Made by a program: the position numbers and the translations under genes
The notes under the pieces: model-generated
Told to the model about the DNA's origin: nothing
The model's input: only the letters and a program-made list of their open reading frames with translations
The model's database searches: none
Source: Auanema rhodensis
Taxonomy: Eukaryota; Animalia; Nematoda
Direction: 5' to 3'
DNA length: 64,000 bases
Assembly: GCA_964057225.1 (NCBI GenBank)
Contig: OZ059898.1
Location: 9,796,001-9,860,000, forward strand
Shown: positions 37,409 to 60,165 of the stretch, piece after piece
Layout of the letters: each line of letters starts with the position of its first letter
Position numbering within the stretch: the stretch's first letter is position 1

Positions 37409-37696
37409 AATTGGTGCATCGGCTAGTTTAGATCTTAGCCGCTTTAAGTCCCGCGTGGCAGGTGAGATACAAGTCGAACCAAGCGTGTTTGTGCAAAAAA
37501 CATACTTAATAAAAATCGTGGCGATCATAAGTCCACGTCAAGTCACACCAAACAGACTTGAACAATAAGCAAACTCTGAAATTAGAAACAGAGGTTTCAA
37601 TTTCCTTACGTTCACATATACTGTGATCACCAAACAAACAAAGAAAAAAGAAAACAAAAAAGGAATATAAGCATTATTCCTACATCTACAACAAAA

Positions 37697-40600
37697 ATGT
37701 CACTCCTTTTTGTCAATCATATCAAACAATCTAACCAGTTTCTTGGAGAACTGCTTACACGATACGAGATGGAAGTGAAGGACCTTCCTGGTATTCTGGT
37801 AGATTGCGACTTTCACACTGAGGAAGAAGAGGAAACCCTCTCTTGCCTTATCATTCGCTGGACAAAAGTCCAACACCAATTCAAAGAATCGTTGAAAAAT
37901 CATCAAGATAACGAGAAAAAATTCCAAAAATTTTACGAAGCATCAGACAAAACGCTTCGTAAAGCATTAGACGAACAGTACATCGCCTTCACATCCGATG
38001 AAGACTTTGAACCCAACATTAAAAAGGTTCAAAACGCCATTATTGAGCTTGACGAACACATCATGAAAGCCGAACGCATACTTAGAAAGCTGAGAAAAAC
38101 GCTTCATAAGAATGAATCTGAGCACAACAGCAATTGCTCAACAGAAAACAATGAAACAGAAAACAAATCGAATGATCAATTTCTGGAAATTATCAAGTCA
38201 TTCCTACACATCCAACAAACTAGCATCCAAAAACCAGCGATGTCGCTACCTACATTTGATGGCAAACCAGAGAACTTCAAATCATTCTGGGGCCGTTTTG
38301 ATAGACTTGTTCATGATAATGAACAGTTTACAACCTTAGAAAAGGTAAACCTACTCTGTGAAAGCCTCAAAGGCGATTCACAAATAGCAATCAGAGGAAT
38401 AGAACCCTCTGCTCAAAATTATGAGCTCATGCGTGAAGCATTAGTTTCTGAATTTGGAGACTATTCGTCGGATATCAACTCTCTTTTAACACAACTACGT
38501 AATTTGAGATTTGCAAGCAATAATGCAAAATCATGTAAAGAAACATTTGGGGAAACCAAGGCACTTATCAGGCAAATTGAAGCAGCCGGAGCTACAGTAT
38601 CCCGCGAAATGTGTACCGCGATGATTCTCAACAAATTCCCATACCACATCGTGGAAGACATTCTAATTTATCCAAACAACTACCATTCCACTAAAGAAAT
38701 GCTGACAGCTGTAGACCACAAAATCTATTCCTTTTTTCTAAAAGAACAAACAAGAAATAGTCATGAACAAAAGTTTCGAAATCCCAAAGAGAATGTCACA
38801 TCTGTAGCACATAAAGAAAACTCCGTAGAACAACGGAAAACCCAAACTTGGCCATGTGTTTTCTGCGACTCATCCGAACATCGCTTTTATCATTGCACCA
38901 CATTTGAAACACCAGAGAAAAGAAGACACCGCATCCGCGGAAAGGCCATCTGTTGGATTTGTTTTTCCGAGAAACACAAAAGTTCCGAATGCAGAAAACA
39001 AAAATGTCGAAATTGCCAAGGAGACCATAATTCCTCCTTGTGCTCACAAGGAAGAAAAAACGTGCAAAATATCCAAAAAGATAAAGAAACTCCCACAATT
39101 AAAAAAGATCAGGCTTTACTGATCACCACAGAAGAATTATTGAATGAAAAAACAACAGAATATAAACAAGAATCTGACACTAATAATCGAATCCCTACTG
39201 AGGCACTTAATGCACCAGTATCGCTTAATCACATTGCCGACACACATAATATTGAAGAAAGTCAAGTAATATTACGAACAGCAATGGCGAACATATACAA
39301 CCACAATAGTAAAAAATATGAGCAAGTACGCATGCTCATAGATGAAGGATCCATGAGATCTTTTATATCCAAGGACTTATCCACTAAGTTAGGATTGCCC
39401 ATCCTTGGTTCTCAAAAGAAAACCTTTTACGGTATCGGAGCATTGTCCGAAACGCACGAAGTTCAGGACGTAAAGGTAATTATTGGAACCTCAAGTGGAT
39501 CCCTTATCGTAACAAAACTATTCACCAAACCCATGTTAACCACACCCATACGTTGTCCAAAACTATCTAAAGAAGACTTGAAATTTATAAAGACAAGAAA
39601 AATAAAATTAGCCAATCCACAAACAAACGGAGAATCATTTACTCCGGATATACTGATAGGTATGGATAGATACAAACTGTTCATGCATTTAAACGAAGAA
39701 ACCGAACTCCCCTCACGTATGAGATTGAAAAATTTGGTATTCGGCCACATGATACATGGAGAAGCTCCTCTTCCCGATGATAATACACAACAAGAAGTAA
39801 TATTATGCTCTACAGTAGAAGAAATAACAAAAGAAACCTCTCATAAAGAACTCCTCACTAATCTGTTTGAACTGGATTCTATCGGCATCAATACAGAAAA
39901 TGCCAACGCAGACCGCACTATTGATTACTATGAAGAATACTCAAAAGATATAAAAATTGAGAACAACCGCATTATTGCACCGTTCCCGTTAAAAAATAAC
40001 TTCAAAAATCTTAAAAACAACAAAATGCCCGCGTACCATAGATTCGTATCCCTATGGCGAAAGTTACTGCACAATCCAGAAATGCTCTCACACTATACTA
40101 CAACCATTGAAAGTTACCTCAAAGATAACATTGTCGAACAAATTCCCAACAATCACCAGGAGCCTTTAGAGTTTTATATGCCCCACCATGGGGTTTGGAA
40201 GCCCAGCAAGGCTAACCCTCTCAGAATCGTTTTTGACGCCTCCGCTAAACAGAAAGACAGCCCATCGTTGAATGAGATAATACACACAGGACGATCATTT
40301 ATCACATATATACACGACATCATGATCTCCTGCAGAACAAGACCAATATTAATAACATGCGATATCAAAGCCGCATTTTTACAAATACAACTGACAGAGA
40401 ATCACAAAAATCTATGCAAATTCTTTTGGATAAAAAACAAAGAATACCCAATATCTCACAATAATATCATAACCCTTCGATTCAACAGATTACCGTTCGG
40501 TATCACTGCATCCCCCAGCGTATTGAACATGGGCATAAAATGGTTCTTAGAATCAAAAGTAGACAACCCATTAGCTATGGAAATACTGAACAACTTATAC

Positions 40601-41110
40601 GTTGACAATATCATTCTTACAGCAAATACAACAGCAGAAGCTATAAAGAAATGTAAAGAAACCCAAAAACTATTTACAGAAATAAACATGCATGTTCGCG
40701 AATTCTTGTCAAACGACGAACAAGTAATACAGAACCTTCCTGAAGAAGACAGATATCCGAACATGACAACCAAAATACTTGGCATATCTTTTAATAAAGA
40801 ACACGACTCCTTCATTATCCCAATAAAAATAACAACGACTCACACAAGTTACACCAAGAGAATTCTACTCAGTCAGCTACACTCAATATTTGATCCCATT
40901 GGATTAGCAGCACCATTACTGTTACCTCTCAAACTTATCTTGCGAGAAATCATAAACACAAAATTATCATGGGACCAACCCATTGAATCAGATAATATCA
41001 AACAATGGGAACAACATATTAATCACATTAACAATCAGCAATTGACCATGAAAAGATATTTTAAATTCTCTGTTGTTCATATTTCCAAACAAACAGCCAA
41101 TCTAATATGA
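37697..41110 (+). CDS. BEL unit 3 Gag-PR-RT, with an additional 711-bp deletion at 41094/41095
   Basis: Matches unit 2 variants; the junction joins unit-1 coordinates 12996 and 13708 over an AAC microhomology. Confidence 0.9.
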   Translation: MSLLFVNHIKQSNQFLGELLTRYEMEVKDLPGILVDCDFHTEEEEETLSCLIIRWTKVQHQFKESLKNHQDNEKKFQKFYEASDKTLRKALDEQYIAFTSDEDFEPNIKKVQNAIIELDEHIMKAERILRKLRKTLHKNESEHNSNCSTENNETENKSNDQFLEIIKSFLHIQQTSIQKPAMSLPTFDGKPENFKSFWGRFDRLVHDNEQFTTLEKVNLLCESLKGDSQIAIRGIEPSAQNYELMREALVSEFGDYSSDINSLLTQLRNLRFASNNAKSCKETFGETKALIRQIEAAGATVSREMCTAMILNKFPYHIVEDILIYPNNYHSTKEMLTAVDHKIYSFFLKEQTRNSHEQKFRNPKENVTSVAHKENSVEQRKTQTWPCVFCDSSEHRFYHCTTFETPEKRRHRIRGKAICWICFSEKHKSSECRKQKCRNCQGDHNSSLCSQGRKNVQNIQKDKETPTIKKDQALLITTEELLNEKTTEYKQESDTNNRIPTEALNAPVSLNHIADTHNIEESQVILRTAMANIYNHNSKKYEQVRMLIDEGSMRSFISKDLSTKLGLPILGSQKKTFYGIGALSETHEVQDVKVIIGTSSGSLIVTKLFTKPMLTTPIRCPKLSKEDLKFIKTRKIKLANPQTNGESFTPDILIGMDRYKLFMHLNEETELPSRMRLKNLVFGHMIHGEAPLPDDNTQQEVILCSTVEEITKETSHKELLTNLFELDSIGINTENANADRTIDYYEEYSKDIKIENNRIIAPFPLKNNFKNLKNNKMPAYHRFVSLWRKLLHNPEMLSHYTTTIESYLKDNIVEQIPNNHQEPLEFYMPHHGVWKPSKANPLRIVFDASAKQKDSPSLNEIIHTGRSFITYIHDIMISCRTRPILITCDIKAAFLQIQLTENHKNLCKFFWIKNKEYPISHNNIITLRFNRLPFGITASPSVLNMGIKWFLESKVDNPLAMEILNNLYVDNIILTANTTAEAIKKCKETQKLFTEINMHVREFLSNDEQVIQNLPEEDRYPNMTTKILGISFNKEHDSFIIPIKITTTHTSYTKRILLSQLHSIFDPIGLAAPLLLPLKLILREIINTKLSWDQPIESDNIKQWEQHINHINNQQLTMKRYFKFSVVHISKQTANLI

Positions 41111-41786
41111 GCCTCGATGAGCTACAGCAAAGAAATATAAATTTAAAATTCTTCAAAGATACATGGGACATTTATCGCGTAAGAAGTCGTTTGCAAAATA
41201 CTCTTCTTCCCGAAGAGACAAAAAACCCTATATTCCTTCTCAAAACAAACCCCATAGTTAAAAAACTGATCAACAAAATACACAAAGATAATAATCATCA
41301 AGGCAAAAATTTCACGCTTATTCAACTCAGACAAAAGTTCTATATACCAAAAATAACCGGAGTCATTAAGCAAACATTGAAAAACTGTGTGACATGTAAA
41401 AGATTTCAATCACATCCTTATGAATTACCAGATATGCCATCGCTACCAAAAGACAGAGCAATTCTTACAAGAGCATTCTTTTCAACAGGGTGTGATCTTA
41501 TGGGCCCCTTCACCCTTCGAAATGGGTCTAAAGTCCATATTTGTCTGTTTACATGCATGACAACTAGAGCGGTTCACTTAGAGGTAGTCACCAATCAATC
41601 CACAGTTGCCTTTATGAATGCATTTAATAGATTTATTTCACGCAGAGGTACTCCAGAAATTATGCGCAGTGACTGCGCAGGAAACTTTATTCTGAGCTCA
41701 AAAATATTAGAAACCCTTGAAAAAACCTCGGATTACAATGAAAGTAGCATACTAAACACATTAGCTCAAAGAAAAATTAAATGGAT
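41107..41786 (+). pseudogene. BEL unit 3 integrase N-terminal part, interrupted by Gypsy element B
   Basis: HHCC and the first two catalytic Asp; breaks at ...KIKWI and resumes at 53435. Confidence 0.92.
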
Positions 41787-42144
41787 CGTTCCGTTATGCT
41801 CCCGCGTCGATCTTACAGACCAATGGAGTCTACAAGATGAGCGTGGTAGTATTCCAGATGTAGCGGTTAAACATGGAGCATAAGGATAAACATAAGACTC
41901 GAGAAAGATTGGTTTATTATATCTACGTGATTACAATAAGATACATATAACTAAGTAAAGGTTAAACTAATAGAGAACAGAGAGAGAACGACCAACCATC
42001 CATGATCGTCCCTGAGGCAAAGCTGAAGTGTTGTAATATGGAAAAGGGCGGGTCGTCTTCTCTCAGTCTCGCATTCTCTGACTCTAACCCGCCTGCTACA
42101 GCTTCGTCATATGAATGTAATGCATTGATCATCCGAATGGAACG
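41787..42144 (-). repeat. Gypsy B 3' LTR
   Basis: Direct repeat of 53077-53434; minus-strand PPT at 42145-42154. Confidence 0.96.
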
Positions 42145-42837
42145 TGCCCTTTTTCGAGTTTATGTCGCGTCCTCGCGACAATCAAAAGTTTTGACTTGAT
42201 TAACTGTAGCAGAAGGGTTAATGTGTGTATTAAAGTACATGTTACAATACAATATTTTACGTAAAATTCTTATAATATGAACATAATACAATATAAAACA
42301 TCAGTATCTGAAAAGAATTAAAAAAAATTTTTTTTAACCAAATTATGAAAGTTTTAACCCTCTTTAACGAATACTAGACTATGTTTTATTGGCGAACGTG
42401 CTTATAAAATAATAAAAAAAAAGTTTTTAAGCATAACGCTCCAACAAGTGTAGATAAAAAGTTAACTATTTTTTTGCTAGAGCTCGGTTGTTTGTTTCAA
42501 TTTGTGTGAGTTTAGAAAAAAAAGAAAAGTTTTGCGTAATACCAAATAACTTCCAAATTGAGTCATTGATTACTCAAGTGAAGACTGTTGCTCAGATATT
42601 GTTGCAAACTATGTCTTTCATTTTTCATCTCATCTAGTATGGGGAAGTTAGTTGAAATTAGGAAGGTTCGAACTATATGATAAAGAATTATCTTCTCACA
42701 TTTCCCGTGTTCATTATGCTCTAGTTTACTTTTTGACTTAAGAGTGACTTGTTTTAGAGGACTCGTTACAAAATTTGTGTTCTAGTATTACTTTAAAGAA
42801 AGTTATTACAAAACAATTTACAATAAAATCTCATGAG

Positions 42838-45800
42838 TTAATGGTTTTTTCTTGATGGTAGCCAATTTGTATCCGAAAGGTCTTCTGGTTCGTCATAAGA
42901 GTCTTCATCGTTGTTGTTTCCGTTGATAACCTCTATGATTTCAATATCGCTGTCATCGTCTGAGCTGTCTGTACGTGTACTGGGCTTATGTGCGATTCCG
43001 TCATCTGTTTCTCGATTAAATAATTTGAGATTGTCCTTGTGAACGTCTTGAATCTTTCCGAAAAGGTTTTTGATTTGAACCATGTTTCCCTTCACATTTA
43101 TAACTTCAAATGGTCCATCATAAGCTTTCCGAAGCTTTTGTCCTGGCTTGTGCATTTTCACAGCTAACATAACGCAGTCTCCTTCTTGTATATCTCTTTC
43201 GTGAGTGCGTAATCGAGCATCATGTTTCTTTTTTGCTAATTCTTGATGCTTTTCCAAATTTTCTTGAATGATTGTTTTCTGTTTGCTTCGGATTTTCTCA
43301 ATATTTTCAATCTCCTTTGAAATTTCCTTTGGTTCAGTTGTTTCGGGGTATAAATCTTTATCCAATCTCAAACGGCTTTCTTTCCCGAATAGTACAACGT
43401 ATGGTGATATTCCTGTGGTTGCATGCGTTGTGGTGTTCAATGCAAAGGTAATTTTTGGCAAAAACATGTCCCAATCAGTGACATCTTCGTTGAGATAATG
43501 TGTGAGTCCTTCTTCTAACGTTCTATGAAGTCTTTCTACTTGTCCATTGGAATTCTTCTGATGTGGGAGTGTTGATTCATGTTTGATACCGAGTTTTTCG
43601 CACATGTCTTCAAATTTCCTTGATAGGAAGTTGGAACCGCGGTCTGTTATTAAGCGGTTCGGTGGTCCATAGACATATACAAAGTTTCTGAGGAATCTAT
43701 CAATGACAACTTCACTAACAATTGTTGGTATGGCGATAGTTGTAGCCCATTTGGAGAAAGAGTCTTGTATTGTGAGGACATAGCTGTTGTTCCTTTTTGA
43801 TGTTGGGAATGGTCCCATGATATCCATATGTATTCTCTCAAATGGTTTTGATGGTATGTTAAATTGACCCATCGGTTGTACGGTCATAGCATGAGGATCT
43901 TTCTTTCGTTGTGCACATTTGATGCACTGTTTTACGTATTTTGCTATGTCGTTCTGCATGTTAGTCCAGGAAAATCTTCGTAATATGGCTTCTTTTGTTT
44001 TGTTGATTCCTTGATGCGCCCCGATTGTTGGGTCTTCATGAAATTCTTCAATGATTTTGTTAATTATATCACTATCCGATGGCAATATTAACGCTGGATG
44101 AGGTCTTTTGACGCTTGGTTTTGTGTAGAGTAAGTTGTTTATAACACAATAACGATCATTTTGAATCATATTTTTCTTCGTTCTGTATTCAATCTCAGCT
44201 ATTGTTCTCTTGATCCAAGGAGTATTTTGTTGGATTGAGCTGAATTCTGGTAACTTCACAACATTTACTTGTTGTGTCTCAATTTTCTCTTTCGAATTCG
44301 TCTTTTGTTTCTTGTTCGACGTCTTTGGATCGTTAGCTTCATCTCCAATGTATCTAGAGAGTGCGTCACAGACTTTGTTTAATCTGCCTTCTCGATATTT
44401 GATCTCAATATCGTATTCCTGTATGACCAATTGGAACTTTGCTAGTCTTCCAAATAGGTCTCTTCTAGTTAGTAAGCTTGTCAATGGGCGATGATCGGTG
44501 ATGCAAATTGAATGTGATCCAAGTATGTATGTTCGAAACTGTGCTAGAGCGTAAACTAAGCCTAAGGCTTCTATCTCTATGGGAGCATAGTTACGTTCTG
44601 CTTTTACTAATTTCCTACTTGCGAAAGCAATTGAATGTAAGTTCTTGAATGGTTCGTTTGGATCTTCGGGCTGCAGTAATACTGCGCCTATGGCGATGTT
44701 GCTGCCATCACTTTCAATGATGAAAGTTCGGTCTGATCGTGGTGGTTTCAGTACCGGTGCTTCGATTAGTCGTTCCTTTAGCTTATCTAGTGAACGTTGA
44801 CATTCGCTAGTCCAATTGAAGTCTGCGTCTAGCTTAGTAAGGTCATACAGCGGACTTGCTATATGTGCAAAATCTTTAATAAATTTTCTAAAGAATCCGA
44901 CCATTCCTAAGAATGCTCTTACTCCTGTGGGTGTTTGAGGAGCAGGGTAATCGCGGATGGCGGAAACTTTCTGTTGATCGGGCTTAACTCCGTCTCTTCC
45001 GACAATGAGTCCGAGAAATTTCACTTCTGGTCTTGCAAATGAACATTTCTTGAGTTTAATCTTAAATCCTAGTCTTTCTACAGCGAGTAATACTTCTTTG
45101 ATGTCTTCGAGGTGTTGTTCTGCGCTGTCTGATATGACTAGTAAATCGTCCAAATAGACAAATAGTCGGCATTTACATTTACTTTGGAGATATCTCACGG
45201 CTGTTTGAAAGGTATGTGGCGCACCACATAATCCCATAGGCATTCTCCTGTATTGATAAGTCCCACTATTGGTGGTAAAGGATGTGAGTGGTCTATCCTT
45301 CTTCAATAATGGTATTTGGAAAAAGCCAGAAACAAGATCAAAATTAGAAAAGTATTGTGATCCAGCCGCTAAGTCAATGATATCAGAGATGTTAGGAATC
45401 ACATATGTTTGTTTTCTTGTAACGTTATTTAAGGCTCGGAAATCCGTAACGAAACGGAATGTTTCGTCTTTTTTCTTAACGAGAACGACAGGGCTGTTGA
45501 ACAAAGATGTCGATCGTTCTATTATCCCTTGCTCGAGCATTTCTTGGACTTGTCTTTCTACCTCTTCTTGTTTCCCGAGAGGTATACGTGAAATTTGTGG
45601 CTTTGGCATATCCATATCCGTTCGTAGTGGTATCTTGTGTTCTACTGGTCCTTTGAACAATCCTATCTTTTTATCTTCATTGAGGAATGCCTTCTTACGC
45701 TGACGAATGATGTTTCGTAGTTCGTCTTTTTGTCGTTGCGTAAGATCAGCCTCTTTTAGGTCAAGTTCTTTCATGAAATCACCAGGGAAGTGAGGTAATT

Positions 45801-48800
45801 TGCCTTCCCAGTCTGCTTCTGGTGGAATATAGTCGTACTGTTGTTCTGTTGAGAAGATTTCATAGTCCGGTATAGATCCTATTTCGGCTTCTGCAATCAC
45901 AGTGCCGGCCGGTATTTCTATGAATTCTTTAGAATTGTTCCGGAATTGGATATTGATGGAGTTAACATCGCGAAATGCTGTGTCGTATCGAGGTGAGAGA
46001 GGAGTATTGTCGTTTGGTTTAATCATAGCGATTAAGTCTTCTCCGATTGGGTTCTCTAATTGGACTTGGAAATTAAAAACTTGTCGAGGAAGTAGACTCC
46101 GCGGCTCCAAGGTTATCAAATTAACAGTTTTTGATATCCTGTTAATATCCCCGTTAATTCCGCTAGCCAAAGGTACTACATGATTTCCAATTTCCAGTGT
46201 TCTTTTGTATGGTCTTAGTTTCATGCCAATGTTTTGACAGTCAAGTGTTTTCATGAAATCTAATCCAATCAACGCTGGCGATGGACAGTCTTTGTCGTCT
46301 GATATGAAGAATGTATGGTCGATTTCGTAACCGGCTATTTCGACGGTTAAGTCGATAGTACCAATGAATACAAATTCTGATCCGTTCGCTGTTGTTGCTC
46401 TTAATGTATTCTTCTTAACAAAGTCATTCAAAGCTAAGTAGTGTAGTGTCGATATTCTTATGTAACTGACGGACGAACCTGAGTCCCATAAAGTTAGGAT
46501 CAGTCTATCATTAACAGTCATCCATAGAAGTGGTAGTGCTTGATCTTTCTTTTTGGAAATCGAGCAAACTAATGGTAGTGCGATTGGTATGAATGTGAGC
46601 ATTGATGGATAGTATTGTTTCATTATGTGTCTTGGAATCGGTTGATCCGGATGACTAACTAATTCCAAAGTTTCTTCGTATGTTGGTAGATCACTGTCGT
46701 GAACTTTGAGTGCAATATGCATAACTGGTATGCCTACTGGTTTGAAGAAATAGATCTTTACAATGAAACCTATCACAAAGAGTATGATGGTAAATAATGT
46801 AATTGCACCGATCGTTATTAGTGTTCGCTCAATCGTTCCTGCAATTGTATCGATGAATGACTTCCATGTGCTCTTGGTGAATTCTTGAGCTTTCGATATG
46901 TAGTCGCTACTTTTCTTTAGTACACTGAATGTAGCTGATATCTTTGGATCATTGTGAATTGTGTGAAGAACGTGATTCTGACGAATCGATGCTAAACTCG
47001 CACCGTAAGCTATGGCTGTGGTCATTGAGTATACACGAGACGATAAATTAGTGTATAAGTGAGCTCCGGTGAATTTTAATGGTGTTATTTTTTCGTGATG
47101 AAGTCCGTCCCACATTGATACAAGATTGACGTCTGCAGTCCCATTAATTCCTTTCCATTCACCTTCGCTAGACCAGATATCTGTTGGTACGTGATCACAG
47201 CTTATTTCTTTACCATGAGGTAAAAGATCCTTGGATCCGGGTGCTGCAAACAGTAACTGTCCGTCTTGTGTCCAGACTGGGGTTTCGAGATAGCATGTGC
47301 CATTTACGGTGTGATTGTGATAAATGGTTTTCTCTAGCACTGTAGGGCATACATGTATATGCAAAATTTCATTGCCTACAAACCGTGCGGCTATATCTTC
47401 TCTTCCCAGTATTGTTCGCATTGCGATTGTTGGTTCAATTTGTAGAATTGATTTCCATAATTCCAGATACCGATTTTGTATCTCGCAAATCGATTCGTAT
47501 GATTCTTCAAAATGTTTCTGCAATTCCTCTTGGATCATTGTAGTAGCATACTGTAAATGATCTTGGGCTATTTTGTTCGATATATTTTGACGAAACTCTT
47601 GTACCGAGTCAATTTTCGTTGCTATGTATCTCGCATTTGCTTCCACTAAATTTGAGGTTTCTACTGATGGTGTTGAGGAAGCTCGGTTTTTTCGAATCAA
47701 TGTTGGAGAGGCTTCGGTTGTCTCTTGTATTTTTGGAATCTGTGCGTCTTTGTATATGGCATAGCTTCTTGTTGTTGTTGGCGAACGAGCGGTTGATGTT
47801 GTTGTGCGTGCTGTTGTCGCAGCGGTCGTGTGAGGCGCCGTTGTTGATGGCTGTTGCCTCCATGATCGTGCTCTTGTGGTGGTTGTTGCATTTGTGTGAG
47901 GATTGTTCGTTATATGCGGCTGTATTGTGGTAACTGATTGGATTGTTCCCTTCTGTTCGATCAAAGGTTGGACTGGTGTCACAACCGCGCCGCTAGCCGC
48001 GCCGCCTGCAGCGACGCTAGCCGCGCCGCCTGCCGCGACGCTGGATGTCCGCGTTGCGATTTGCCGAAAATTTGTTTCATTTTTCTCTGCCATTAAGATT
48101 TGAAGTTGTTCTTGTGTTATCCTACTCGATGTATAAGGTGTTTTTACATTATTGAGCAGGGGTAAAAATATTTCCAATAATAATTTCTTTGAAAGATTGC
48201 TGGGCTTGATCAGCTTAGGGTGTGGACCGATCGGTATTCCATAATTATTCTTCCTGTCATAAAATAGTTTATCTGTATTTGGCATGAATTGTCGTGATGC
48301 TGGCAATTTTATAAATTTTCTGTCATCAATAAATGCTGCAGTTTTATTCCATCGTACTGTTGTGAGGGTTTTTAGTTCTCTTAGTAAATTGATCGTTGCC
48401 TTAATGAATTCGCTTTTCTTCTCTTCCTCGTCAGTTAGTATACCTTTTCTTATTGGTGGCATTTGTATGAACGTTTGTAGGACTTCTTGTCGTGATGGAA
48501 CTGTCAGTCCTTCTTCAATTATAACTGGTGTATTGGTTAAATTGAGAGCTATGCTTTCAATTCGTTCGCGATATGAACCTTCTTTCTTCCTTATGATTTC
48601 ATCGAATTCGATTACTGTCAAACGATCTGATATTTGTTCGAGAAGCTGTTCAGATGTTAAGTATGATATTGCTGCCTTTGTAGTAATGGCTAATTCTCTT
48701 TGTGCTATATAATATAGCAGAGCTTCTTCTTTATCACTGAAATCGTATTGCTTGAGAAAATGTCGAACAGAATGTTCATTTATTTGAATTCTGAAGAAAA

Positions 48801-51567
48801 ATTCGAATTTTTCTTTATGTGATGTTATCCATGCCTTTAGAGAGTATGTTGGATCTACTAAACGTCTTCCTTTGATTATAGGAATAATTGAAGTAATACC
48901 GGGATTACTCATTAATGGTCTTAGGAAAGTATATGGACAGACGTGAAGCAATACTGTTTCATAATCTTCAACTTCGTTGATCCGATCTTGATCCAGTGGG
49001 AAAGAACATCCTTCGGTGACTGCACGTTTTGGTCTTTTAAACGGCAGCTTTTTGAACTCTCTTTCAATAAGGGTGGTTATATTGTTGTCGTTTGGAAATT
49101 TAGGAAGAATGATATAATTTCCTGATGTCGTATGGAACGCTGGCTGCCTGAAGCAAGAAGAAATAGGTTTCGGAGTTGGTTTGCTCGAAAGAATAAGTGC
49201 CGATTGTGTACTAGGGATTAAAATAGTATCTTGACTAATGATAGCGTCATATGTATGCATATCGATGTAATTACAACGTGAAGCAGTGGTTTGTGGGTCC
49301 CATATTATTATTGATGTACTTGATTCACAATTACCATGATGTGCATTGCATCCTTCCGTGTTTAATATTAAGTTTGACAATATTGTATCGTCAGGCATAC
49401 GGGTCATGACTCCGCGCTCTAATATTAGACGTGACCGCTCCTCGCACGCGTCGCGGTTGAACGCGCGCGCTGGGTCATAGGAGGGCTCCGGAGTTGCTTG
49501 GGTGATACTATCAATGCGTTGCAGTTCTATGTTATTCCACTTGCGATCGCGGATCGCCTGTCTGCATTCGCGCTCTCCTATAGGCTGTATTCTATTTATT
49601 GTTCTGTTCGTATCGCGGAGGAATAGCAGGTCTCGTACGCATAACTTGTGTACTTCCTCTGAACAACGCCACGCATCCCATTCGTGTGCTGTGTGATTTC
49701 TTGTGTACAGATGAATTTCTGTACGTAGCACATGGTTTTTCTCTGTTAATCTGCATTTTCTGATTGTTGGTGGCATAAGTAATGCGCCTCCTGTTGCTCT
49801 TGTACAGATTTGATATGTAGATGCACAGGGCAAGAATATTGCTGCTGTTATTGCCATGATAACTGTGAGCGTCAAAGGCGAAAGGGTGACAGAGTTTATT
49901 CTTGTTGAGCTTCTATCTCTTCCTCTTGAGTTGTCTCTTGGATTTTTGAATTGAACTCTTCTTTGTCCGTTGTTGTTATTGAATCTACCTCGTTGGTTGT
50001 TATGACGAAAATTATAATTTCTTTGATGCCAATCAGAACTCGATTGCCTATTATCTTGTTCGTTATAATTTGTACGGCGATTATTATTAGCGAAAGAACC
50101 GTAACGGTTTCGATTATTATTGAAATTAGAAAAGTTTTTATTTTTTTGATAATTTTGATAATTTTGATTATTTTGATAATTTTGATTATTTCTTATCATT
50201 TGGTTATCGCGTTGATAATTGCGATTAAATGTTTGGCTATCTCGTCTCTCATCATTACGCGCAAAGGGTGCTAGTGCTTTGTTCACAGCGTTGACCAACA
50301 TCGATTGCGTGTCTGTTGTTTGGTTCACTATCGATTCCTCCCAGCGAGCTGCTTCAATCGCTTCTGTGAAGGATTTTGGCTTTGCTCGGATCACAGCTGG
50401 TTTTAGAGAATTTTTAAGTCCTCTGAGGAATGTTGATCTCAGTATTTGATCTTTATGTGGGTCATCAGATGCAAATGCACTCAATGCCATTGTTCTTAAT
50501 GCTTGGGCGTATGCATCAATTGTCAATTCCCCTTGCGTGGTGTTTTGAAGGTTAATAAGTGCAGGGTCTTGGTTATATTCAGGGCAGAGCTTCGATGTTA
50601 GTGCTCTAATCAGATCATTCCACGAACCAGTTGTTTTAAGTTGTTCAGGAACTTGTCTGTAAGTTTCTTCTGCTGCTTCATTTTTGAGAAGCAAAGGAAG
50701 AAGTGCTAACCTTTCAGGGATAACAAGGCCAATGGCATTAGCAAACAAGTTGAATTCACCCGTAAAATCACGGAAGTTACGACTGCCGTCGTAAGTTGGA
50801 CAGTAAGGCGAAAGTAAGGCTTGCGCGATTGTTGTTTTCCCTGCCCCAGGTAGTGAGGAAACAGCTTCCGTCATGATGTTATTCGTACGGGTAGATGGTA
50901 TTTTGATCGTTCTACCTGTTATTGGTGGGGTCTCCAAAATAGGGGTTGTTTGCGTGGATGGAATAGGTCTATTGGGTGCCTTAGGAAGTGAGTCTGTTGT
51001 TGTTAAGATGGGAGTAGAAGTTTGATGAATACTGGTATTTGGTGCAGGTGGTTGAATTGGTGAGATATTAATGTTAGGGACTGATGAATATCTGCTTTTG
51101 CGCTTGGTGTTGAAAGTTTTATCTTTAGGCGAAAGGTTAAAAAGATCAGTAACAATGTTTCTAAGAGAACTAAGCCCACCCGCGCTAGAAGTTTTTGAAA
51201 GTAAAGGGGAATCGGTTGGTTCAGTTAGTGAGAGAGAGAGAGAAGCGTCGCTGATGTTTTGATTTTTCTTATTTTTATTAGAATTAGAGGAGCGTACCTT
51301 TTTAGGAGTGATCGGTGTTTGTTCCTCCACAATGATTGATAGTTCTTCTTCTATAGTAGGTACGTAGTCCGGGTCGCCTAGTTGTTCAGTAGGTGAGACA
51401 GAATCAGTAGTAGGAATAAGGAAATTATCCGGCTTCTTGTCGACTTTCTGCTCCTCTTCTAATATAGCGACGTCTTGAGCTCGAGCTCGACTTCTGGTAA
51501 AGGGAGCTGAGTCTTGGGAATCGAAATGCGTACTTATAGGTACGGCTGAATGGAATCTCTTAGCCAC
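42838..51567 (-). CDS. Gypsy B single polyprotein: Gag - gB-like glycoprotein - PR - RT - RNase H - IN
   Basis: PTYDG...FLRGL; signal peptide ~49890-49820; KRPKR; TM ~46825-46760; LWDSGSS; YLDD; SDGS/TDH/DALSR; HQG..CIKC, DDE, GPF. The start codon is uncertain (frame open from 51630, first ATG at 50874). Confidence 0.95.
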   Translation of the reverse strand: MAKRFHSAVPISTHFDSQDSAPFTRSRARAQDVAILEEEQKVDKKPDNFLIPTTDSVSPTEQLGDPDYVPTIEEELSIIVEEQTPITPKKVRSSNSNKNKKNQNISDASLSLSLTEPTDSPLLSKTSSAGGLSSLRNIVTDLFNLSPKDKTFNTKRKSRYSSVPNINISPIQPPAPNTSIHQTSTPILTTTDSLPKAPNRPIPSTQTTPILETPPITGRTIKIPSTRTNNIMTEAVSSLPGAGKTTIAQALLSPYCPTYDGSRNFRDFTGEFNLFANAIGLVIPERLALLPLLLKNEAAEETYRQVPEQLKTTGSWNDLIRALTSKLCPEYNQDPALINLQNTTQGELTIDAYAQALRTMALSAFASDDPHKDQILRSTFLRGLKNSLKPAVIRAKPKSFTEAIEAARWEESIVNQTTDTQSMLVNAVNKALAPFARNDERRDSQTFNRNYQRDNQMIRNNQNYQNNQNYQNYQKNKNFSNFNNNRNRYGSFANNNRRTNYNEQDNRQSSSDWHQRNYNFRHNNQRGRFNNNNGQRRVQFKNPRDNSRGRDRSSTRINSVTLSPLTLTVIMAITAAIFLPCASTYQICTRATGGALLMPPTIRKCRLTEKNHVLRTEIHLYTRNHTAHEWDAWRCSEEVHKLCVRDLLFLRDTNRTINRIQPIGERECRQAIRDRKWNNIELQRIDSITQATPEPSYDPARAFNRDACEERSRLILERGVMTRMPDDTILSNLILNTEGCNAHHGNCESSTSIIIWDPQTTASRCNYIDMHTYDAIISQDTILIPSTQSALILSSKPTPKPISSCFRQPAFHTTSGNYIILPKFPNDNNITTLIEREFKKLPFKRPKRAVTEGCSFPLDQDRINEVEDYETVLLHVCPYTFLRPLMSNPGITSIIPIIKGRRLVDPTYSLKAWITSHKEKFEFFFRIQINEHSVRHFLKQYDFSDKEEALLYYIAQRELAITTKAAISYLTSEQLLEQISDRLTVIEFDEIIRKKEGSYRERIESIALNLTNTPVIIEEGLTVPSRQEVLQTFIQMPPIRKGILTDEEEKKSEFIKATINLLRELKTLTTVRWNKTAAFIDDRKFIKLPASRQFMPNTDKLFYDRKNNYGIPIGPHPKLIKPSNLSKKLLLEIFLPLLNNVKTPYTSSRITQEQLQILMAEKNETNFRQIATRTSSVAAGGAASVAAGGAASGAVVTPVQPLIEQKGTIQSVTTIQPHITNNPHTNATTTTRARSWRQQPSTTAPHTTAATTARTTTSTARSPTTTRSYAIYKDAQIPKIQETTEASPTLIRKNRASSTPSVETSNLVEANARYIATKIDSVQEFRQNISNKIAQDHLQYATTMIQEELQKHFEESYESICEIQNRYLELWKSILQIEPTIAMRTILGREDIAARFVGNEILHIHVCPTVLEKTIYHNHTVNGTCYLETPVWTQDGQLLFAAPGSKDLLPHGKEISCDHVPTDIWSSEGEWKGINGTADVNLVSMWDGLHHEKITPLKFTGAHLYTNLSSRVYSMTTAIAYGASLASIRQNHVLHTIHNDPKISATFSVLKKSSDYISKAQEFTKSTWKSFIDTIAGTIERTLITIGAITLFTIILFVIGFIVKIYFFKPVGIPVMHIALKVHDSDLPTYEETLELVSHPDQPIPRHIMKQYYPSMLTFIPIALPLVCSISKKKDQALPLLWMTVNDRLILTLWDSGSSVSYIRISTLHYLALNDFVKKNTLRATTANGSEFVFIGTIDLTVEIAGYEIDHTFFISDDKDCPSPALIGLDFMKTLDCQNIGMKLRPYKRTLEIGNHVVPLASGINGDINRISKTVNLITLEPRSLLPRQVFNFQVQLENPIGEDLIAMIKPNDNTPLSPRYDTAFRDVNSINIQFRNNSKEFIEIPAGTVIAEAEIGSIPDYEIFSTEQQYDYIPPEADWEGKLPHFPGDFMKELDLKEADLTQRQKDELRNIIRQRKKAFLNEDKKIGLFKGPVEHKIPLRTDMDMPKPQISRIPLGKQEEVERQVQEMLEQGIIERSTSLFNSPVVLVKKKDETFRFVTDFRALNNVTRKQTYVIPNISDIIDLAAGSQYFSNFDLVSGFFQIPLLKKDRPLTSFTTNSGTYQYRRMPMGLCGAPHTFQTAVRYLQSKCKCRLFVYLDDLLVISDSAEQHLEDIKEVLLAVERLGFKIKLKKCSFARPEVKFLGLIVGRDGVKPDQQKVSAIRDYPAPQTPTGVRAFLGMVGFFRKFIKDFAHIASPLYDLTKLDADFNWTSECQRSLDKLKERLIEAPVLKPPRSDRTFIIESDGSNIAIGAVLLQPEDPNEPFKNLHSIAFASRKLVKAERNYAPIEIEALGLVYALAQFRTYILGSHSICITDHRPLTSLLTRRDLFGRLAKFQLVIQEYDIEIKYREGRLNKVCDALSRYIGDEANDPKTSNKKQKTNSKEKIETQQVNVVKLPEFSSIQQNTPWIKRTIAEIEYRTKKNMIQNDRYCVINNLLYTKPSVKRPHPALILPSDSDIINKIIEEFHEDPTIGAHQGINKTKEAILRRFSWTNMQNDIAKYVKQCIKCAQRKKDPHAMTVQPMGQFNIPSKPFERIHMDIMGPFPTSKRNNSYVLTIQDSFSKWATTIAIPTIVSEVVIDRFLRNFVYVYGPPNRLITDRGSNFLSRKFEDMCEKLGIKHESTLPHQKNSNGQVERLHRTLEEGLTHYLNEDVTDWDMFLPKITFALNTTTHATTGISPYVVLFGKESRLRLDKDLYPETTEPKEISKEIENIEKIRSKQKTIIQENLEKHQELAKKKHDARLRTHERDIQEGDCVMLAVKMHKPGQKLRKAYDGPFEVINVKGNMVQIKNLFGKIQDVHKDNLKLFNRETDDGIAHKPSTRTDSSDDDSDIEIIEVINGNNNDEDSYDEPEDLSDTNWLPSRKNH
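47991..48042. repeat. 24-bp in-frame tandem duplication (SVAAGGAA x2) in the Gypsy B glycoprotein
   Basis: CGCTAGCCGCGCCGCCTGC(A/C)GCGA occurs twice. Confidence 0.85.
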
Positions 51568-53063
51568 CTTGCTAGAACTCTTGGTTTGAAAAAACCTTGA
51601 GTGCTTGGTAACGTGTGGGATGTTGAGACGTTAAAGAATGCGGTGAATAAGGATGAGGATGTAGGCAAAATGAGAAAGGCTTTGGAGAGCGACCGGTGTC
51701 GTATCGACAACTTGTGAGAATGAGGTCGATGCCTTGGCCAATGGCGATGGATCCGCCTTCTACTGTGTGATATCGGGACTCTGGTGCTCTCCGTATTTTC
51801 TCTGTAGTTGAAAATCTGATTCACAAAACATCTGGGGTGACCAAGCTGTTATTTTACAAAACGTTTAGTGTAATTCGTAATATTCGTTCAATTACAGCAC
51901 ATTTTACTGATTTGTATGCAACCATTTTCCTCATGCTGACTAAACTTATGTTTTGTTACACTAGTTTCTCGGCCATGTGGTGTGTCATCTTGCAACAAAA
52001 CTTATGGTGTAATTCGTAACATGCTTTTGATAAAAGAGCAGTTTAACAATAAATGTGCACCAATTTCTCTTTTGTCGCCAAAAATAATTTTTGTTTCTTT
52101 ACAATCTGGTTTTCAAATACATTTGGTGTAGCTCGCATGTTTCGTTGTAACAAAAGTCATGGGATTCGTAATATTAGTTTTACAAAAGAGCGTTTCGCAA
52201 TGATGAATGTAGGTATTTCGTGATCAGAAATCGAATTTTGAAATAAAAGCAGAATTAAATGGCTAAATATTACAAGAACTAGTATTAAAGTTGGAATAAG
52301 GTTCAATGCGTGAGTCTTATGCTTCTGAACAACAATAACGGTATGAGGAAGGTGACATTCAGTAAGGGGAGAAAATCCAAAGCGATATGCTTTAGCCAAC
52401 ACGACCTGTGTTAATCATGATTCAAATTCGAGATAACATTTTTCAACAGGATTTTTCGGACTATAGCGATCTATAAATTAACAATCCTCCCTTTTTGGTG
52501 AGGTTTCCCGTGTAATTTTTTTTCATGCGTACTGATTATAAATTTAGGATGTTAGAAGCAAAATTTGTCTGAACGAAATCGTAACGCAAAATAAAATAGT
52601 CCTGATCGCAAAACAAACTTCATCCACGAAATATAAAGATATAACCGAAGTTATTCTTTCCTTGAAGCCAAAATTAATCCTTAAAAAGGAGAAAGCGTGG
52701 GAAATACGAAATAACAATTACTTTAGGTGAATTTGTTCACTAATTCAGCCTAAAGCCCTCATCAAGCTTCAAGGTTGGGTAACAGAGCATTTCAGATGTT
52801 ATAAGCAAGGATACGAAATTTAAAGGTTCAGACGAAAGAATTTTTGTGAACAAACGGGAAAATAATAATCTCGAAACGTATAATCCTTCTTTAAAAAAAA
52901 AAAGGATTCCTTGCCTCTGTTCCCATTTAACGTTGTTGGCCCCTCCGTATTGTGTTAAGACATAGAGTAGATGGTATGAGAAAAAGAGAGATGAAAGAAA
53001 TTTGAAAATGAATTAACAACACAAACATTAAAGAGAAGGAAAAAAAAATTGTGATAAGTTCGA

Positions 53064-53076
53064 GGTGGAACCTCCA
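53064..53076 (-). promoter_or_regulatory. Gypsy B PBS, complementary to the tRNA-Gln 3' end
   Basis: TGGAGGTTCCACC directly after the 5' LTR end GGAACG; same PBS as element A. Confidence 0.85.
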
Positions 53077-53434
53077 CGTTCCGTTATGCTCCCGCGTCGA
53101 TCTTACAGACCAATGGAGTCTACAAGATGAGCGTGGTAGTATTCCAGATGTAGCGGTTAAACATGGAGCATAAGGATAAACATAAGACTCGAGAAAGATT
53201 GGTTTATTATATCTACGTGATCACAATAAGATACATATAACTAAGTAAAGGTTAAACTAATAGAGAACAGAGAGAGAACGACCAACCATCCATGATCGTC
53301 CCTGAGGCAAAGCTGAAGTGTTGTAATATGGAAAAGGGCGGGTCGTCTTCTCTCAGTCTCGCATTCTCTGACTCTAACCCGCCTGCTACAGCTTCGTCAT
53401 ATGAATGTAATGCATTGATCATCCGAATGGAACG
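53077..53434 (-). repeat. Gypsy B 5' LTR
   Basis: Direct repeat of 41787-42144. Confidence 0.96.
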
Positions 53435-54950
53435 GGATATACAACACTCCGCTATCTCCTTGGAAAGGAGGTTGTTGGGAACGCTTAGTAGGTGTCACCA
53501 AATCATCCCTCAAAAAATGCTTCGTTCCTAGTCAAATGTCACTAGATGATTTACACACAGCTATTGTAAAAATAGAAGCCATAATTAATACACGCCCACT
53601 CACTCATCCACACCCAGATAATTTAGATGCCTTACCCATAAGACCAATTGATTTTTTAACATCAGCAATAAAGTTTTCATTACCAGAAAACAATGATAAC
53701 ACTCATATATTCGATATTCACAGCGATATCCAAACGATTCAATCGACAGAACAAGCGCTAGAAGCTCTTCAGTTATCAGAAGACTCAGCGTCTAAATTCT
53801 GGACACGTTTCCAGGAGGAGTATCTAACTAGTTTAAAAGACATTTTCAAACATAAAAACAAGAGAAAAAATCACACAAATCTCTTTCCTCACAAGGATGA
53901 AATAGTAATAATACAAAACGACATGTCGCCACGAGGAACATGGAAACTAGGTCGCATTATTGAAACAATTACTAGTTCAGATGGCAACATACGTTCAGCA
54001 AAAGTTGCAACAAGCAACGGAAACATAATTACTCGATCCATCAATCAGCTCTATCCACTAGAGATAAGATGCAACACTAGCAACAACAAAATCATAGAAG
54101 ACAACTCACACATAGTCCAAGAAAATAATAGCTCAACAGATAGAATAGCACATACTGATACCGTATTAGACAACATACACTCCGATCATCATATAGAACA
54201 TACAGATGAAACAATACATGAGAACAATAACATAAATGATAGCAACCATAATTACGATATTGCATATGAATCAGACAACTCTCAACATGATAATACATAC
54301 ACTCCAGAAACAGAGAATAATGAGGATGCAACAAACGATCGACCTCAAAATAAAACAAAACTATCATCAGTGAAAACAGCAAAATATACAGAACAAGATG
54401 AGGTCACTGAGAAGGAAAATATAAAAGCCTTCCCACTAAAAATGTCCTATGCCACACACCAAAGAAAAAATAAAATAAACCCAAAAATAGCAGCTGACAT
54501 AATGAAAGCCCTTTCATTACCGATTATAATTACTTCGACATATGCCGAAGAAATCAATAGTTGCAAGGACTCTAACATGTTCACCACAAAACTTATAGCG
54601 AATCCTCATTGCTCCCCAGAAATGGCAACATGGACAGTGCTAATAACCATTATGGCAGTTACCCTCATAGTCTCTTGTCTATGCCGCATGGGCTACAGCC
54701 AATATAGATATAAGACATGGTCCAAAAACACTCAAACCATGCTCAACATCATGAAATTAAAACATAAAACAATCTCCGAACAAGAAGATCATGAAACTGA
54801 TCAAAAAATAACAGAAGACCACAATGATACGTTGCAATTAAAACAAACGAACACACAAGACGCTAATATTGTGGATCATGAAACCTTTCAAAAGCATATT
54901 TACCCTATTTTAAACCATACGAGAAAGCCACCAAAATTCTTTCTCTTTAC
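53435..54950 (+). pseudogene. BEL unit 3 integrase C-part and linker, truncated just before the Gc signal peptide
   Basis: Matches unit 1 ~14396-15911, then breaks. Confidence 0.92.
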
Positions 54951-55157
54951 AGTAACAGCCAATCTAATATGAGCCTCGATGAGCTACAGCAAAGAAATAT
55001 AAATTTAAAATTCTTCAAAGATACATGGGACATTTATCGCGTAAGAAGTCGTTTGCAAAATACTCTTCTTCCCGAAGAGACAAAAAACCCTATATTCCTT
55101 CTCAAAACAAACCCCATAGTTAAAAAACTGATCAACAAAATACACAAAGATAATAAT
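54951..55157 (+). pseudogene. BEL integrase fragment (duplicate of unit-1 13702-~13908) at the right breakpoint
   Basis: AGTAACAGCCAATCTAATATGAGC... runs to ...CACAAAGATAATAAT, then an (AAT)n run and satellite. Confidence 0.88.
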
Positions 55158-55166
55158 AATAATAAT

Positions 55167-57554
55167 TTTTCAATTTTATTTTACTGTTTTTGGAATTTCA
55201 AGTATTATAATCAAGTAAGTAAACAAGAAGTGTTTCTCTTTGATTTTTTTCTTTGTTTAATCTTAATCATGGAAACTTTCAATAAAAACTGTTACCTTAT
55301 TTTAGCCGATAATCAGTTAATAGTAGAGATAGCTGAACTTTAATTCTTTTCTAAAACTTACAATTCTCTTCAAATCGTTCAACTTTTTTCGTCGCTTTCT
55401 CTATTTTATTTTACTGTTTTTGGAATTTCAAGTATTATAATCAAGTAAGTAAACAAGAAGTGTTTCTCTTTGATTTTTTTTTCTTTGTTCAATCTTAATC
55501 ATGGAAACTTTTAATAAAAACTGTTACCATATTTTAGCCGACAATCATTAAATAGTAGAGAGAGCTAAACTTTAATTTTTTTCTTCAACTTACAATTGTC
55601 CTCAAATCGTTCAACAGTTTTACTCGCTTTAACAGTTTTATTTTACTGTTTTTGGAATTTCAAGTATTATAATCAAGTAAGTAAACAAGAAGTGTTTCTC
55701 TTTGATTTTTTTTTCTTTGTTTAATCTTAATCATGGAAACTTTTAATAAAAAACTGTCACCATATTTCAGCCGATAATCAGTTAATAGTAGACAAAGCTA
55801 AACTTTAAATCTTTTCTTAAACTTACAATTCTCTTCAAATCGTTCAACTGTTTATGTTGCTTTCTCAATTGTTTTTTACTTTTTTTCGAATTTCAAGTAG
55901 TATAATCAAGTAAGTAAACAAGAAGTGTTTCTTTTTAATTCTTTTTTTTGTTTAATCCTAATCATGGAAACTTTTTATAAAAACTGTTACCATATTTTAG
56001 CCGACAATCAGTTAATAGTAGAGAGAACTTATTTTTAATTATTTTCTAAAACTAACAATTCTCTTCAAATCAGTAGAACTTGACTTTTCATAATTTTTCG
56101 GAAACAATCTAACATTTTCGAAGCATCGGTGGTTCAGTGGTAGAATGCTCGCCTGCCACGCGGGCGACCCGGGTTCGATTCCCGGCCGATGCAACTTCAC
56201 TTTTATAAAAAAATATCATTTATATTTTATAAAGACTGTTTTAGTTCAACAGTTTTACCCGCTTCCACAGTTTTTTTTTACTTTTGTTGGAATTTCAAGT
56301 GTTATAATCAAATTAGTAAACAAGAAGTGTTTCTCTTTGATTTTTTTTCTTTGTTTAATCTTAATCATGGAAACTTCTAATAAAAACTGTTATCATATTT
56401 TAGCCGACATTCAGTTAATAGTAGAGAGAGCTAAACTTTAATTCTTTTCTTAAACTTACAATTGTCTTCAAATCGTTCAACTGTTTTTGTCGCTTTCTCA
56501 ATTTTATTTTACTGTTTTTGGAATTTCAAGTATTATAATCAAGTAAGTAAACAAGAAGTGTTTCTCTCTAATTTTTTTTTCTTTGATTAATCTTAATCAT
56601 GGAAACTTTTAAAAAAAACTGTCACCATATTTCAGCCGATAATCAGTTAATAGTAGACAAAGCTAAACTTTAATTCTTTTCTAAAACTCACAATTCTCTT
56701 CAAATCGTTCAACTTTTTTCGTCTCTTTCTCTATTTTATTCTACTGTTTTTGGAATTTCAAGTATTATAATCAAATAAGTAAACAAGAAGTGTTTCTCTT
56801 TGATTTTTTTTCTTTGTTTAATCTTAATCATGGAAACTTTTAATAAAAACTGTTACCTTATTCTAGCCGATAGTCAGTTAATAGTAGAGATAGCTGAACT
56901 TTAATTCTTTTCTAAAACTTACAATACTCTTCAAATCGTTCAACTGTTTTTGTCGATTTCTCAATTTTATTCTACTGTTTTTGGAATTTCAAGTATTATA
57001 ATCAAATAAGTAAACAAGAAGTGTTTCTCTTTGATTTTTTTTCTTTGTTTAATCTTAATCATGGAAACTTTTAAAAAAAAACTGTCACCATATTTCAGCC
57101 GATAATCAGTTAATAGTAGACAAAGCTAAACTTTAATTCTTTTCTTAAACTTACAATTGTCTTCAAATTGTTCAACAGTTTTACTCGCTTTAACAGTTTT
57201 ACTTTACTTTTGTTGGAATTTCAAGTGTTATAATCAAATTAGTAAACAAGAAGTGTTTCTCTTTGATTTTTTTTTCTTTGTTTAATCTTAATCATGGAAA
57301 CTTTTAAAAAAAAACTGTCACCATATTTCAGCCGATAATCAGTTAATAGTAGACAAAGCTAAACTTTAATTCTTTTCTTAAACTTACAATTGTCTTCAAA
57401 TCGTTCAACTGTTTTTGTCGCTTTCTCAATTTTATTTTACTGTTTTTGGAATTTCAAGTATTATAATCAAGTAAGTAAACAAGAAGTGTTTCTCTCTAAT
57501 TTTTTTTTGTTCAATCTTAATCATGGAAACTTTCAATAAAAACTGTCACCATAT
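55167..57554. repeat. 231-bp satellite/tRNA array in inverted orientation
   Basis: Reverse complement of the monomer; its tRNA is on the + strand. Confidence 0.95.
56123..56193 (+). tRNA. tRNA-Gly(GCC)
   Basis: Full 71-nt cloverleaf on the + strand followed by TTTT. Confidence 0.96.
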
Positions 57555-57563
57555 GAACTGCAT

Positions 57564-57654
57564 CATTTTCGAAGCATCGGTGGTTCAGTGGTAGAATGCT
57601 CGCCCGCGTGGCAGGCGAGCATTCTACCACTGAACCACCGATGCTTCGAAAATG
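57564..57654. pseudogene. Fold-back palindrome of two tRNA-Gly 5' halves (41-bp perfect arms, 9-nt loop)
   Basis: CATTTTCGAAGCATCGGTGGTTCAGTGGTAGAATGCTCGCC-cgcgtggca-GGCGAGCATTCTACCACTGAACCACCGATGCTTCGAAAATG; no T arm or B box. Confidence 0.93.
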
Positions 57655-59131: not shown

Positions 59132-59202
59132 TGCATCGGCCGGGAATCGAACCCGGGTCGCCCGCGTGGCAGGCGAGCATTCTACCACTGAACCACCGAT
59201 GC
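59132..59202 (-). tRNA. tRNA-Gly(GCC)
   Basis: Full cloverleaf; mirror copy of 56123-56193 including flank variants. Confidence 0.96.
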
Positions 59203-59996
59203 TTCGAAAATGTTAGATTGTTTCCGAAAAATTATGAAAAGTCAAGTTCTACTGATTTGAAGAGAATTGTTAGTTTTAGAAAATAATTAAAAATAAGTTC
59301 TCTCTACTATTAACTGATTGTCGGCTAAAATATGGTAACAGTTTTTATAAAAAGTTTCCATGATTAGGATTAAACAAAAAAAAGAATTAAAAAGAAACAC
59401 TTCTTGTTTACTTACTTGATTATACTACTTGAAATTCGAAAAAAAGTAAAAAACAATTGAGAAAGCAACATAAACAGTTGAACGATTTGAAGAGAATTGT
59501 AAGTTTAAGAAAAGATTTAAAGTTTAGCTTTGTCTACTATTAACTGATTATCGGCTGAAATATGGTGACAGTTTTTTATTAAAAGTTTCCATGATTAAGA
59601 TTAAACAAAGAAAAAAAAATCAAAGAGAAACACTACTTGTTTACTTATTTGATTATAACACTTGAAATTCCAACAAAAGTAAAGTAAAACTGTTAAAGCG
59701 AGTAAAACTGTTGAACGATTTGAAGACAATTGTAAGTTTAAGAAAAGAATTAATGTTTAGCTTTGTCTACTATTAACTGAAAGTCGGCTGAAATAAGGTA
59801 ACAGTTTTTATTAAAAGTTTCCATGATTTAGATTAAACAAAAAAAAAAATCAAAGAGAAACACTTCTTGTTTACTAATTTGATTATAACACTTGAAAATC
59901 CAACAAAAGTAAAATAAAACTGTGAAAGCGGGTAAAACTGTTGAACTAAAACAGTCTTTATAAAATATAAATGATATATTTTTATAAAAGTGAAGT

Positions 59997-60067: not shown

Positions 60068-60165
60068 TTCGAAAATGTTAGATTGTTTCCGAAAAATTAT
60101 GAAAAGTCAAGTTCTACTGATTTGAAGAGAATTGTAAGTTTTAGAAAAGAATTAAAGTTCAGCTA

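Follow-up and report, generated by a model that had tools for sequence, protein, structure and literature searches.

An intact gag-env-pol Ty3/gypsy element with a predicted class III envelope protein in a satellite locus of Auanema rhodensis

The window analyzed here, a stretch of 64,000 nucleotides of Auanema rhodensis DNA, contains Ty3/gypsy elements in which a glycoprotein resembling herpesvirus gB lies inside the reading frame, between gag and pol. This raises the question of what kind of element it is and what a viral fusogen could do for it in such a position. The locus is built on AT-rich satellite units of ~231 bp (1–8100 and 55100–60200; higher-order repeats of ~865, 1093 and 4159 bp), which are the host of all elements in the window. 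The satellite array is broken up by tandem BEL/Pao elements, in which Pfam detects a Pao peptidase, DUF1759 and a phlebovirus-type env (PF07245). Their copies at 8110–21953, 31336–41786 and 53435–55160 share LTRs and are >99.7% identical; they encode an env of the phlebovirus G2 type and, close to the 5′ LTR, a separate frame of 173 codons. One copy is uninterrupted and two are split by the Ty3/gypsy elements A and B. Both of these lie on the minus strand, nested in BEL/Pao, and a third element, C, is inserted directly into the satellite and runs past the window end. Two unrelated fusogen classes, class III in A and B and phlebovirus-type in BEL/Pao, thus share one locus.

21954–31335, minus strand: element A, a sister lineage with layout and primer site as in B, TG...CA ends and target duplication CATG
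41787–53434, minus strand: element B, 358-bp LTRs with one difference, 4-bp target duplication GGAT
60166–64000, minus strand: element C, closest to B and represented by its 3′ part alone (RT to LTR), with an LTR at 60166–60509 that has CG...CG ends

The sister BEL/Pao copies show the unoccupied targets, which fixes the boundaries of both complete elements and their 4-bp duplications (GGAT for B, CATG for A). The empty site of B is present in the two other BEL/Pao copies of the window, and its joint was found in 4/4 sequencing runs. An earlier note on this DNA had described dissimilar LTRs in A and B, with about one difference within each pair, and this is what we observe: 1/358 positions differ in B and 1/399 in A, and the LTRs of the two families cannot be aligned with each other (best local match of 38 columns; no blastn match at 1e-10). 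B is intact, and the single LTR difference, the target duplication and the empty sites mark it as a recent insertion; the recent mobility proposed in the same note is supported.

53077–53434, minus strand: 5′ LTR of B, 358 bp, termini CG...CG
53065–53076, minus strand: primer-binding site directly after the 5′ LTR, 12/12 match to the tRNA-Gln 3′ end
41787–42144, minus strand: 3′ LTR of B, with the GGAT target duplication outside both LTRs

The LTRs of B and C (41787–42144, 53077–53434 and 60166–60509) begin and end with CG and have a 6-bp terminal inverted repeat, while the LTR of A ends canonically with TG...CA. The empty site leaves CG ends as the sole reading for B; integrase specificity may differ in the B/C branch. 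CG...CG ends are not described in the searched passages of PMC13524379, and among the matches listed for literature on non-canonical LTR termini nothing concerned nematode CG ends. Such ends would extend the range of substrates known for Ty3/gypsy integrases.

Element B possesses one minus-strand frame at 42838–51630, 2930 codons from stop to stop, encoding gag, env, protease, RT, RNase H and integrase. The pol order, protease–RT–RNase H–integrase, is that of Ty3/gypsy, and Pfam found neither the Pao peptidase nor the DUF1759 of the flanking BEL/Pao element in B.

50875–51630, minus strand: ATG-less open stretch, 252 codons ahead of the first Met
49876–50874, minus strand: Gag, with a capsid domain at ~50311–50688 followed by an Asn/Arg/Gln-rich RNA-binding-like tail
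46249–46518, minus strand: aspartic protease (PF13975 and PF13650 above cut-off), active-site motif at 46491–46474
44413–45480, minus strand: reverse transcriptase and RNase H (PF00078, PF17919, PF17917)
43564–44073, minus strand: integrase zinc finger and core (PF17921, PF00665)

In Gag, PF03732 scores 26.4 bits, above its cut-off of 24.1, and PF19259 scores 20.1 bits, below its cut-off of 29.1. Element A likewise has 82 open codons without ATG before its first Met (29868–30113); a non-AUG start or a spliced leader is possible for this stretch in both elements.

The env interval, 46745–49890, covers residues 581–1628 of the frame, and the longest open frame in 1000 base shuffles of it was 181 codons, compared with the 1048 observed, which argues against chance. 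All motifs quoted in the earlier note are present in the order given there; the core helix motif starts at 47490 and CYLETPV lies at 47295–47275. Each of the 14 cysteines in the A ectodomain has an aligned counterpart in B, and B has two additional cysteines in a spacer discussed below.

49819–49875, minus strand: internal signal segment of env (residues 586–604, hydropathy 2.05), cleavage predicted, mature start at 49818
49096–49818, minus strand: N-terminal half of env with fusion and PH-like domains rich in beta structure; 10 of its cysteines also occur in A
49024–49038, minus strand: furin-type site KRPKR, the sole R-x-K/R-R in the polyprotein, with a counterpart at this position in A and in the Auanema protein P0004
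46831–47661, minus strand: env C-terminal half, with long central helix, beta crown and stem
46759–46821, minus strand: env transmembrane helix, hydropathy 2.66

Profile searches point to class III fusogens. The Monjiviricetes fusion glycoprotein family PF24664 scores 47.3 bits in B and 44 in A (gathering score 27), and the herpesvirus glycoprotein B family PF00606 scores 34.9 bits in B; as the latter is under its gathering score of 43, we call the env gB-like rather than a gB. Used alone, the B sequence matches herpes gB weakly (best E 0.0023), whereas a profile built from 50 relatives finds it at E 2.6e-13, along with a weak match to rhabdovirus-type G. The model of the ectodomain (996 residues, mean pLDDT 71.5) starts with a beta-rich N-half and a helical middle domain; after a disordered stretch come a helix of 75 residues, a beta crown and a stem. 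On structural re-alignment herpes gB occupied all of the best 50 rows (best Z 11.8, rmsd 24.6 over 356 residues), and since the pTM is 0.40 and the rmsd to gB is ~25 Å, domain packing in this monomer model is unreliable. For 8vym the agreement was Z 9.9 with an rmsd of 3.7 over 189 residues. The best matches in a viral fold library were rhabdo-like, nyamivirus, entomopoxvirus and herpes glycoproteins (E 1.1e-14 onward, nyamivirus fourth); whole-ectodomain Atlas matches were all <0.9 and serve as leads only. Taken at the level of sequence and predicted fold, the env domains are assigned to a class III fusogen of the herpes gB and nyamivirus/rhabdo-like G type.

Between the furin site and the core, B has ~480 additional residues, which the earlier note passed over. 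From the env N-half to the central helix, its spacer runs over 532 residues, the longest of the 63 measured among the listed relatives (median 83; 37 at ≤100 and 10 at ≥300), and contains two recognizable parts.

48304–48903, minus strand: helical insert domain, ~200 residues, pLDDT mostly 70–90
47662–48069, minus strand: Ser/Thr-rich linker, low confidence in the model, containing an 8-residue repeat of which three other runs have one unit fewer

The helical insert was detected only in A, B and, among the listed relatives, in Auanema proteins and weakly in two others. The 21 spacers of ≥150 residues comprise two or more further groups that are unrelated to it, which makes the spacer look like a place where each lineage inserts a domain of its own. 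Searches with the insert yielded nothing above cut-off in Pfam (best E 0.011), no match above 0.78 in the Atlas and none under E 0.25 in the viral fold library. Among 48,161 chains the best hit was a death domain at Z 4.2 (65 residues, rmsd 3.9); none of this establishes the fold as new. A word-index search of the insert alone against longer proteins gave no match, which is weak evidence. The searched main-text passages of PMC13524379 mention neither inserts nor mucin-like regions. We tentatively propose, as a somewhat doubtful reading, that the post-furin spacer is a slot for lineage-specific accessory domains in nematode gB-type envs, that the helical domain of A, B and Auanema, of undescribed fold, may be a built-in receptor-binding subunit making env a two-part machine resembling SU/TM, and that the integrase of the B/C branch acts on CG ends in place of CA. 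An insert that proved to be an attachment domain would show how a gB-type fusogen works without the partner proteins needed by herpesviruses.

Is the arrangement old, or did one element capture a glycoprotein by chance? A HMMER search gave 279 proteins at E ≤0.001, and the analyses took the 150 listed. Gag, env and then protease or RT follow one another in one chain in 26/150, 12 of them complete to integrase; in another 13/150 the integrase precedes the gB-like env, and the spacer there is 51–86 residues long. The nearest named proteins are from Auanema sp. and Caenorhabditis, which fits a rhabditid host, and the 20 relatives whose organisms were looked up include Auanema sp. (5), C. brenneri (2), C. 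japonica (2), C. nigoni (1), Acrobeloides nanus (1) and Aphelenchus avenae (1). Word-index protein searches found P0004 only. Five of the relatives (P0013, P0016, P0022, P0033 and P0118) have two or three tandem protease-like segments between env and RT.

The RT–RNase H tree, built on 19 rows, unites A, B and C (95/94), makes B and C sisters (100/100) and places a C. japonica element next to the three; together with this C. japonica protein (100/99) they fall within a group of C. brenneri, C. nigoni and A. nanus (93/92, drawn open). All rows of this tree are matches of the present analysis, with no env-less outgroup and none of the sequences of PMC13524379. The env N-half tree (87 rows, quick method) places A, B and the Auanema protein in one clade (95) inside a C. 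japonica and C. brenneri group (98). A and B group together on both trees; they are sister lineages that descend from one env-bearing ancestor and represent one inherited capture rather than two, so they do not count as independent evidence. The env was inherited together with pol, and the earlier view of an old arrangement rather than a one-off capture, shared as the layout is by Caenorhabditis, Acrobeloides and Aphelenchus, is supported. The proteins of A and B had also been called strongly diverged, which is true of env (27% identity overall) but not of pol (67% in RT–RNase H). B and C share 82% identity in RT–RNase H and an alignable LTR; from this kinship we predict that C carries an env beyond the window.

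Copies in other data bear on whether env is maintained. Eleven DNA runs of three studies contain more than half of B's words, and one of these runs may be the source of the window itself. In run X1 env lies on one contig of 3916 nt, with five differences and one in-frame 24-nt gap in the 8-residue repeat, and contigs of other runs bridge the gag–env and env–protease junctions. Two runs presumed to be RNA contained only scraps of B, with none covering env, and so speak neither for nor against expression. The listed differences among copies comprise 6 replacement and 3 silent changes in env and 4 and 9, respectively, in pol. These counts are small and leave out the clustered rows at 43801–43819, 45346–45355 and 50302–50305, likely from diverged relatives, as well as rows outside the frame. 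An in-frame internal deletion of 7041 nt (43473–50515) with TGAT microhomology has its joint in 6/6 DNA runs examined and represents a non-autonomous derivative of B without env and most of pol; a retrotransposed splice product is ruled out by the microhomology and the lack of GT-AG.

Between A and B the synonymous sites are saturated (pS 0.65–0.77), so a firm dN/dS is out of reach. The pN/pS ratio is 0.60 (0.52–0.73) and 0.63 (0.51–0.76) for the two env halves, 0.57 for the Gag capsid, 0.30 for RT–RNase H and 0.93 (0.80–1.09) for the insert. When B was aligned to codon-shuffled A as a control, the mean was 0.80 and the minimum 0.68; the env-half intervals overlap this control, and the insert is without signal of constraint. 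The saturation makes the constraint on the core a qualitative result, about equal to that on Gag, and in this qualitative sense long-term constraint on the env core is supported. The purifying selection on env asserted in the earlier note therefore stands in its long-term form (pN/pS ~0.6, like Gag, at saturation), while present-day selection is not evident from 6 replacement and 3 silent changes. Frequent stops among copies, the pattern named there as contrary to selection, were not found, as no stop was seen among the listed differences.

We consider it probable that B is a single-frame Ty3/gypsy gag-env-pol element of the published nematode GAG-ENV-POL errantivirus (NERV) kind, whose class III env likely passes enveloped particles from cell to cell. 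One polyprotein would be made at the ER, where the internal signal would thread env into the lumen and signal peptidase would free the env N-terminus. The env transmembrane helix would stop transfer, so that Pol would remain in the cytosol, tethered to the env tail, until cut free by the element's protease, which would also separate Gag from the signal, at an (I/V)N-x-(V/I) motif. Furin would cut env into two disulfide-linked halves, and trimers would fuse membranes; the insert, at the N-terminus of the anchored half, would likely be an attachment or shielding module.

The hydrophobic segments on either side of env fit a flavivirus-like topology, in which env would be luminal and both Gag and Pol cytosolic, the latter attached to the env tail. 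A signal-like hydrophobic segment precedes env in 37/41 of the listed relatives with gag followed by env, and a TM-like segment follows env in 45/46 of the listed chains with env followed by protease. A further hydrophobic segment, containing proline, is situated just before the protease at ~46555–46610; it is conserved between A, P0004 and B and reaches a hydropathy of 2.08 in A; because a second membrane crossing there would misplace Pol, it is likely a re-entrant anchor or a part of the protease. In A, B and P0004 the signal is immediately preceded by the motif (I/V)N-x-(V/I/L); B and C have this motif between RNase H and integrase, too. Among the listed relatives, [VIL]N-x-[VIL] precedes the signal in 17/41, versus 13% of background windows. 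Motifs of this type serve as protease sites in Ty3/gypsy elements, and the one here is likely the site of the element's own protease.

Drosophila gypsy and ZAM spread from soma to germline, and by analogy the most likely route for B would be from soma to germline within one animal; particle formation and fusion, too, are suggested by analogy. The term potentially infectious, applied to these elements in the earlier note, is a reading by analogy already in print for the nematode errantivirus group. Translated from a single frame, Gag, Env and Pol would be made in equal amounts; this is uncommon for particles and counts against the cell-to-cell reading.

The env could alternatively be a passenger, with B copying itself in germ cells, env kept open only to spare pol, and the signal and TM helix retained to keep Pol cytosolic. 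Its position in frame between gag and pol fits this idea: a stop in env would cut off the downstream pol, so an open env frame is weak evidence of env function. The env differences within the family, which are not depleted of replacements, fit it as well, as does the derivative without env found in all six runs, which is also without most of pol. However, A and B have retained the 14 cysteines, the furin site and the fold despite saturation at synonymous sites, the env core (0.60–0.63) is constrained like the Gag capsid (0.57), and the layout persists in several nematode genera, yet an in-frame deletion could remove env. We therefore regard the passenger reading as unlikely. That B is a horizontally transmitted virus, passing from animal to animal and re-entering the germline, we regard as very unlikely: its closest listed relatives come from related nematodes, the env and pol trees agree locally, PMC13524379 reports concordance of env, pol and host, and near-identical copies in 11 runs of three studies fit inheritance. 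This is so in spite of the intact frame, the near-identical LTRs, a fusogen with a large lineage-specific surface domain, and the presence in one locus of three related families beside a BEL/Pao element with phlebovirus env, all of which would suit such a virus.

That env is a fusogen domesticated by the host, or that the assembly joined a Gypsy element to an RNA-virus glycoprotein by mistake, has only the repeat-rich setting in its favor and is extremely improbable. Both ideas are refuted by the paired LTRs, target duplication and empty sites, by the contigs of other runs bridging both env junctions, and by the same layout in 26/150 listed relatives.

Herpesvirus gB and Monjiviricetes G resemble the B env in sequence and fold of both halves and in a furin site in the linker before the central helix; in herpes gB this site lies in the linker after the N-half. 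The structural identity is 9–16%, and unlike these glycoproteins the B env is the middle of a polyprotein and has a large insert. Elements of the Ascaris Tas type are BEL/Pao with a gB-like env, and Atlas virus has a class II env of the phlebovirus type; like B, these are nematode LTR elements with captured viral fusogens. In BEL/Pao elements with env, however, env follows integrase, whereas in B it lies between gag and pol, and the class II env of Atlas is like that of the BEL/Pao element that B entered, in contrast to the class III env of B. The NERV of Sacco and colleagues reportedly have one continuous gag-env-pro-pol frame, a nyamivirus-like env and accessory genes; no accessory gene was seen in B, whose sense strand has no ATG frame of ≥60 codons outside the main frame.

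The closest counterparts are the nematode GAG-ENV-POL errantiviruses, such as C. latens errantivirus 4, which agree with B in gene order, a gB-type env between signal and TM, a tRNA-Gln primer site and near-identical LTRs. According to PMC13524379 (Chary and Hayashi, eLife), nematode errantiviruses have gB-type env only and GAG-ENV-POL order, with Sacco et al. 2022 cited for nematode ERVs with flipped env/pol order. The identical 12-nt primer sequence is given there as tRNA-Gln for two Caenorhabditis GAG-ENV-POL elements, and tRNA-Gln appears in 8 of 30 nematode rows (of 36), 2 of them with the 12-mer of B. By eye only, the domain I–II row shown for C. latens errantivirus 4 has eight cysteines in the same order as B and several motifs in common. 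Relative to the elements seen in that paper, B is distinguished by the 532-residue spacer with its own helical domain and by CG...CG ends. Two Auanema assemblies were screened there, and the element list contains no Auanema element. The gag-env-pol layout is thus already published, and what B mainly contributes is an intact and young example from a group of nematodes that the published list lacks. Its locus is useful as material, offering empty next to filled sites, three related families, and fusogens of two classes.
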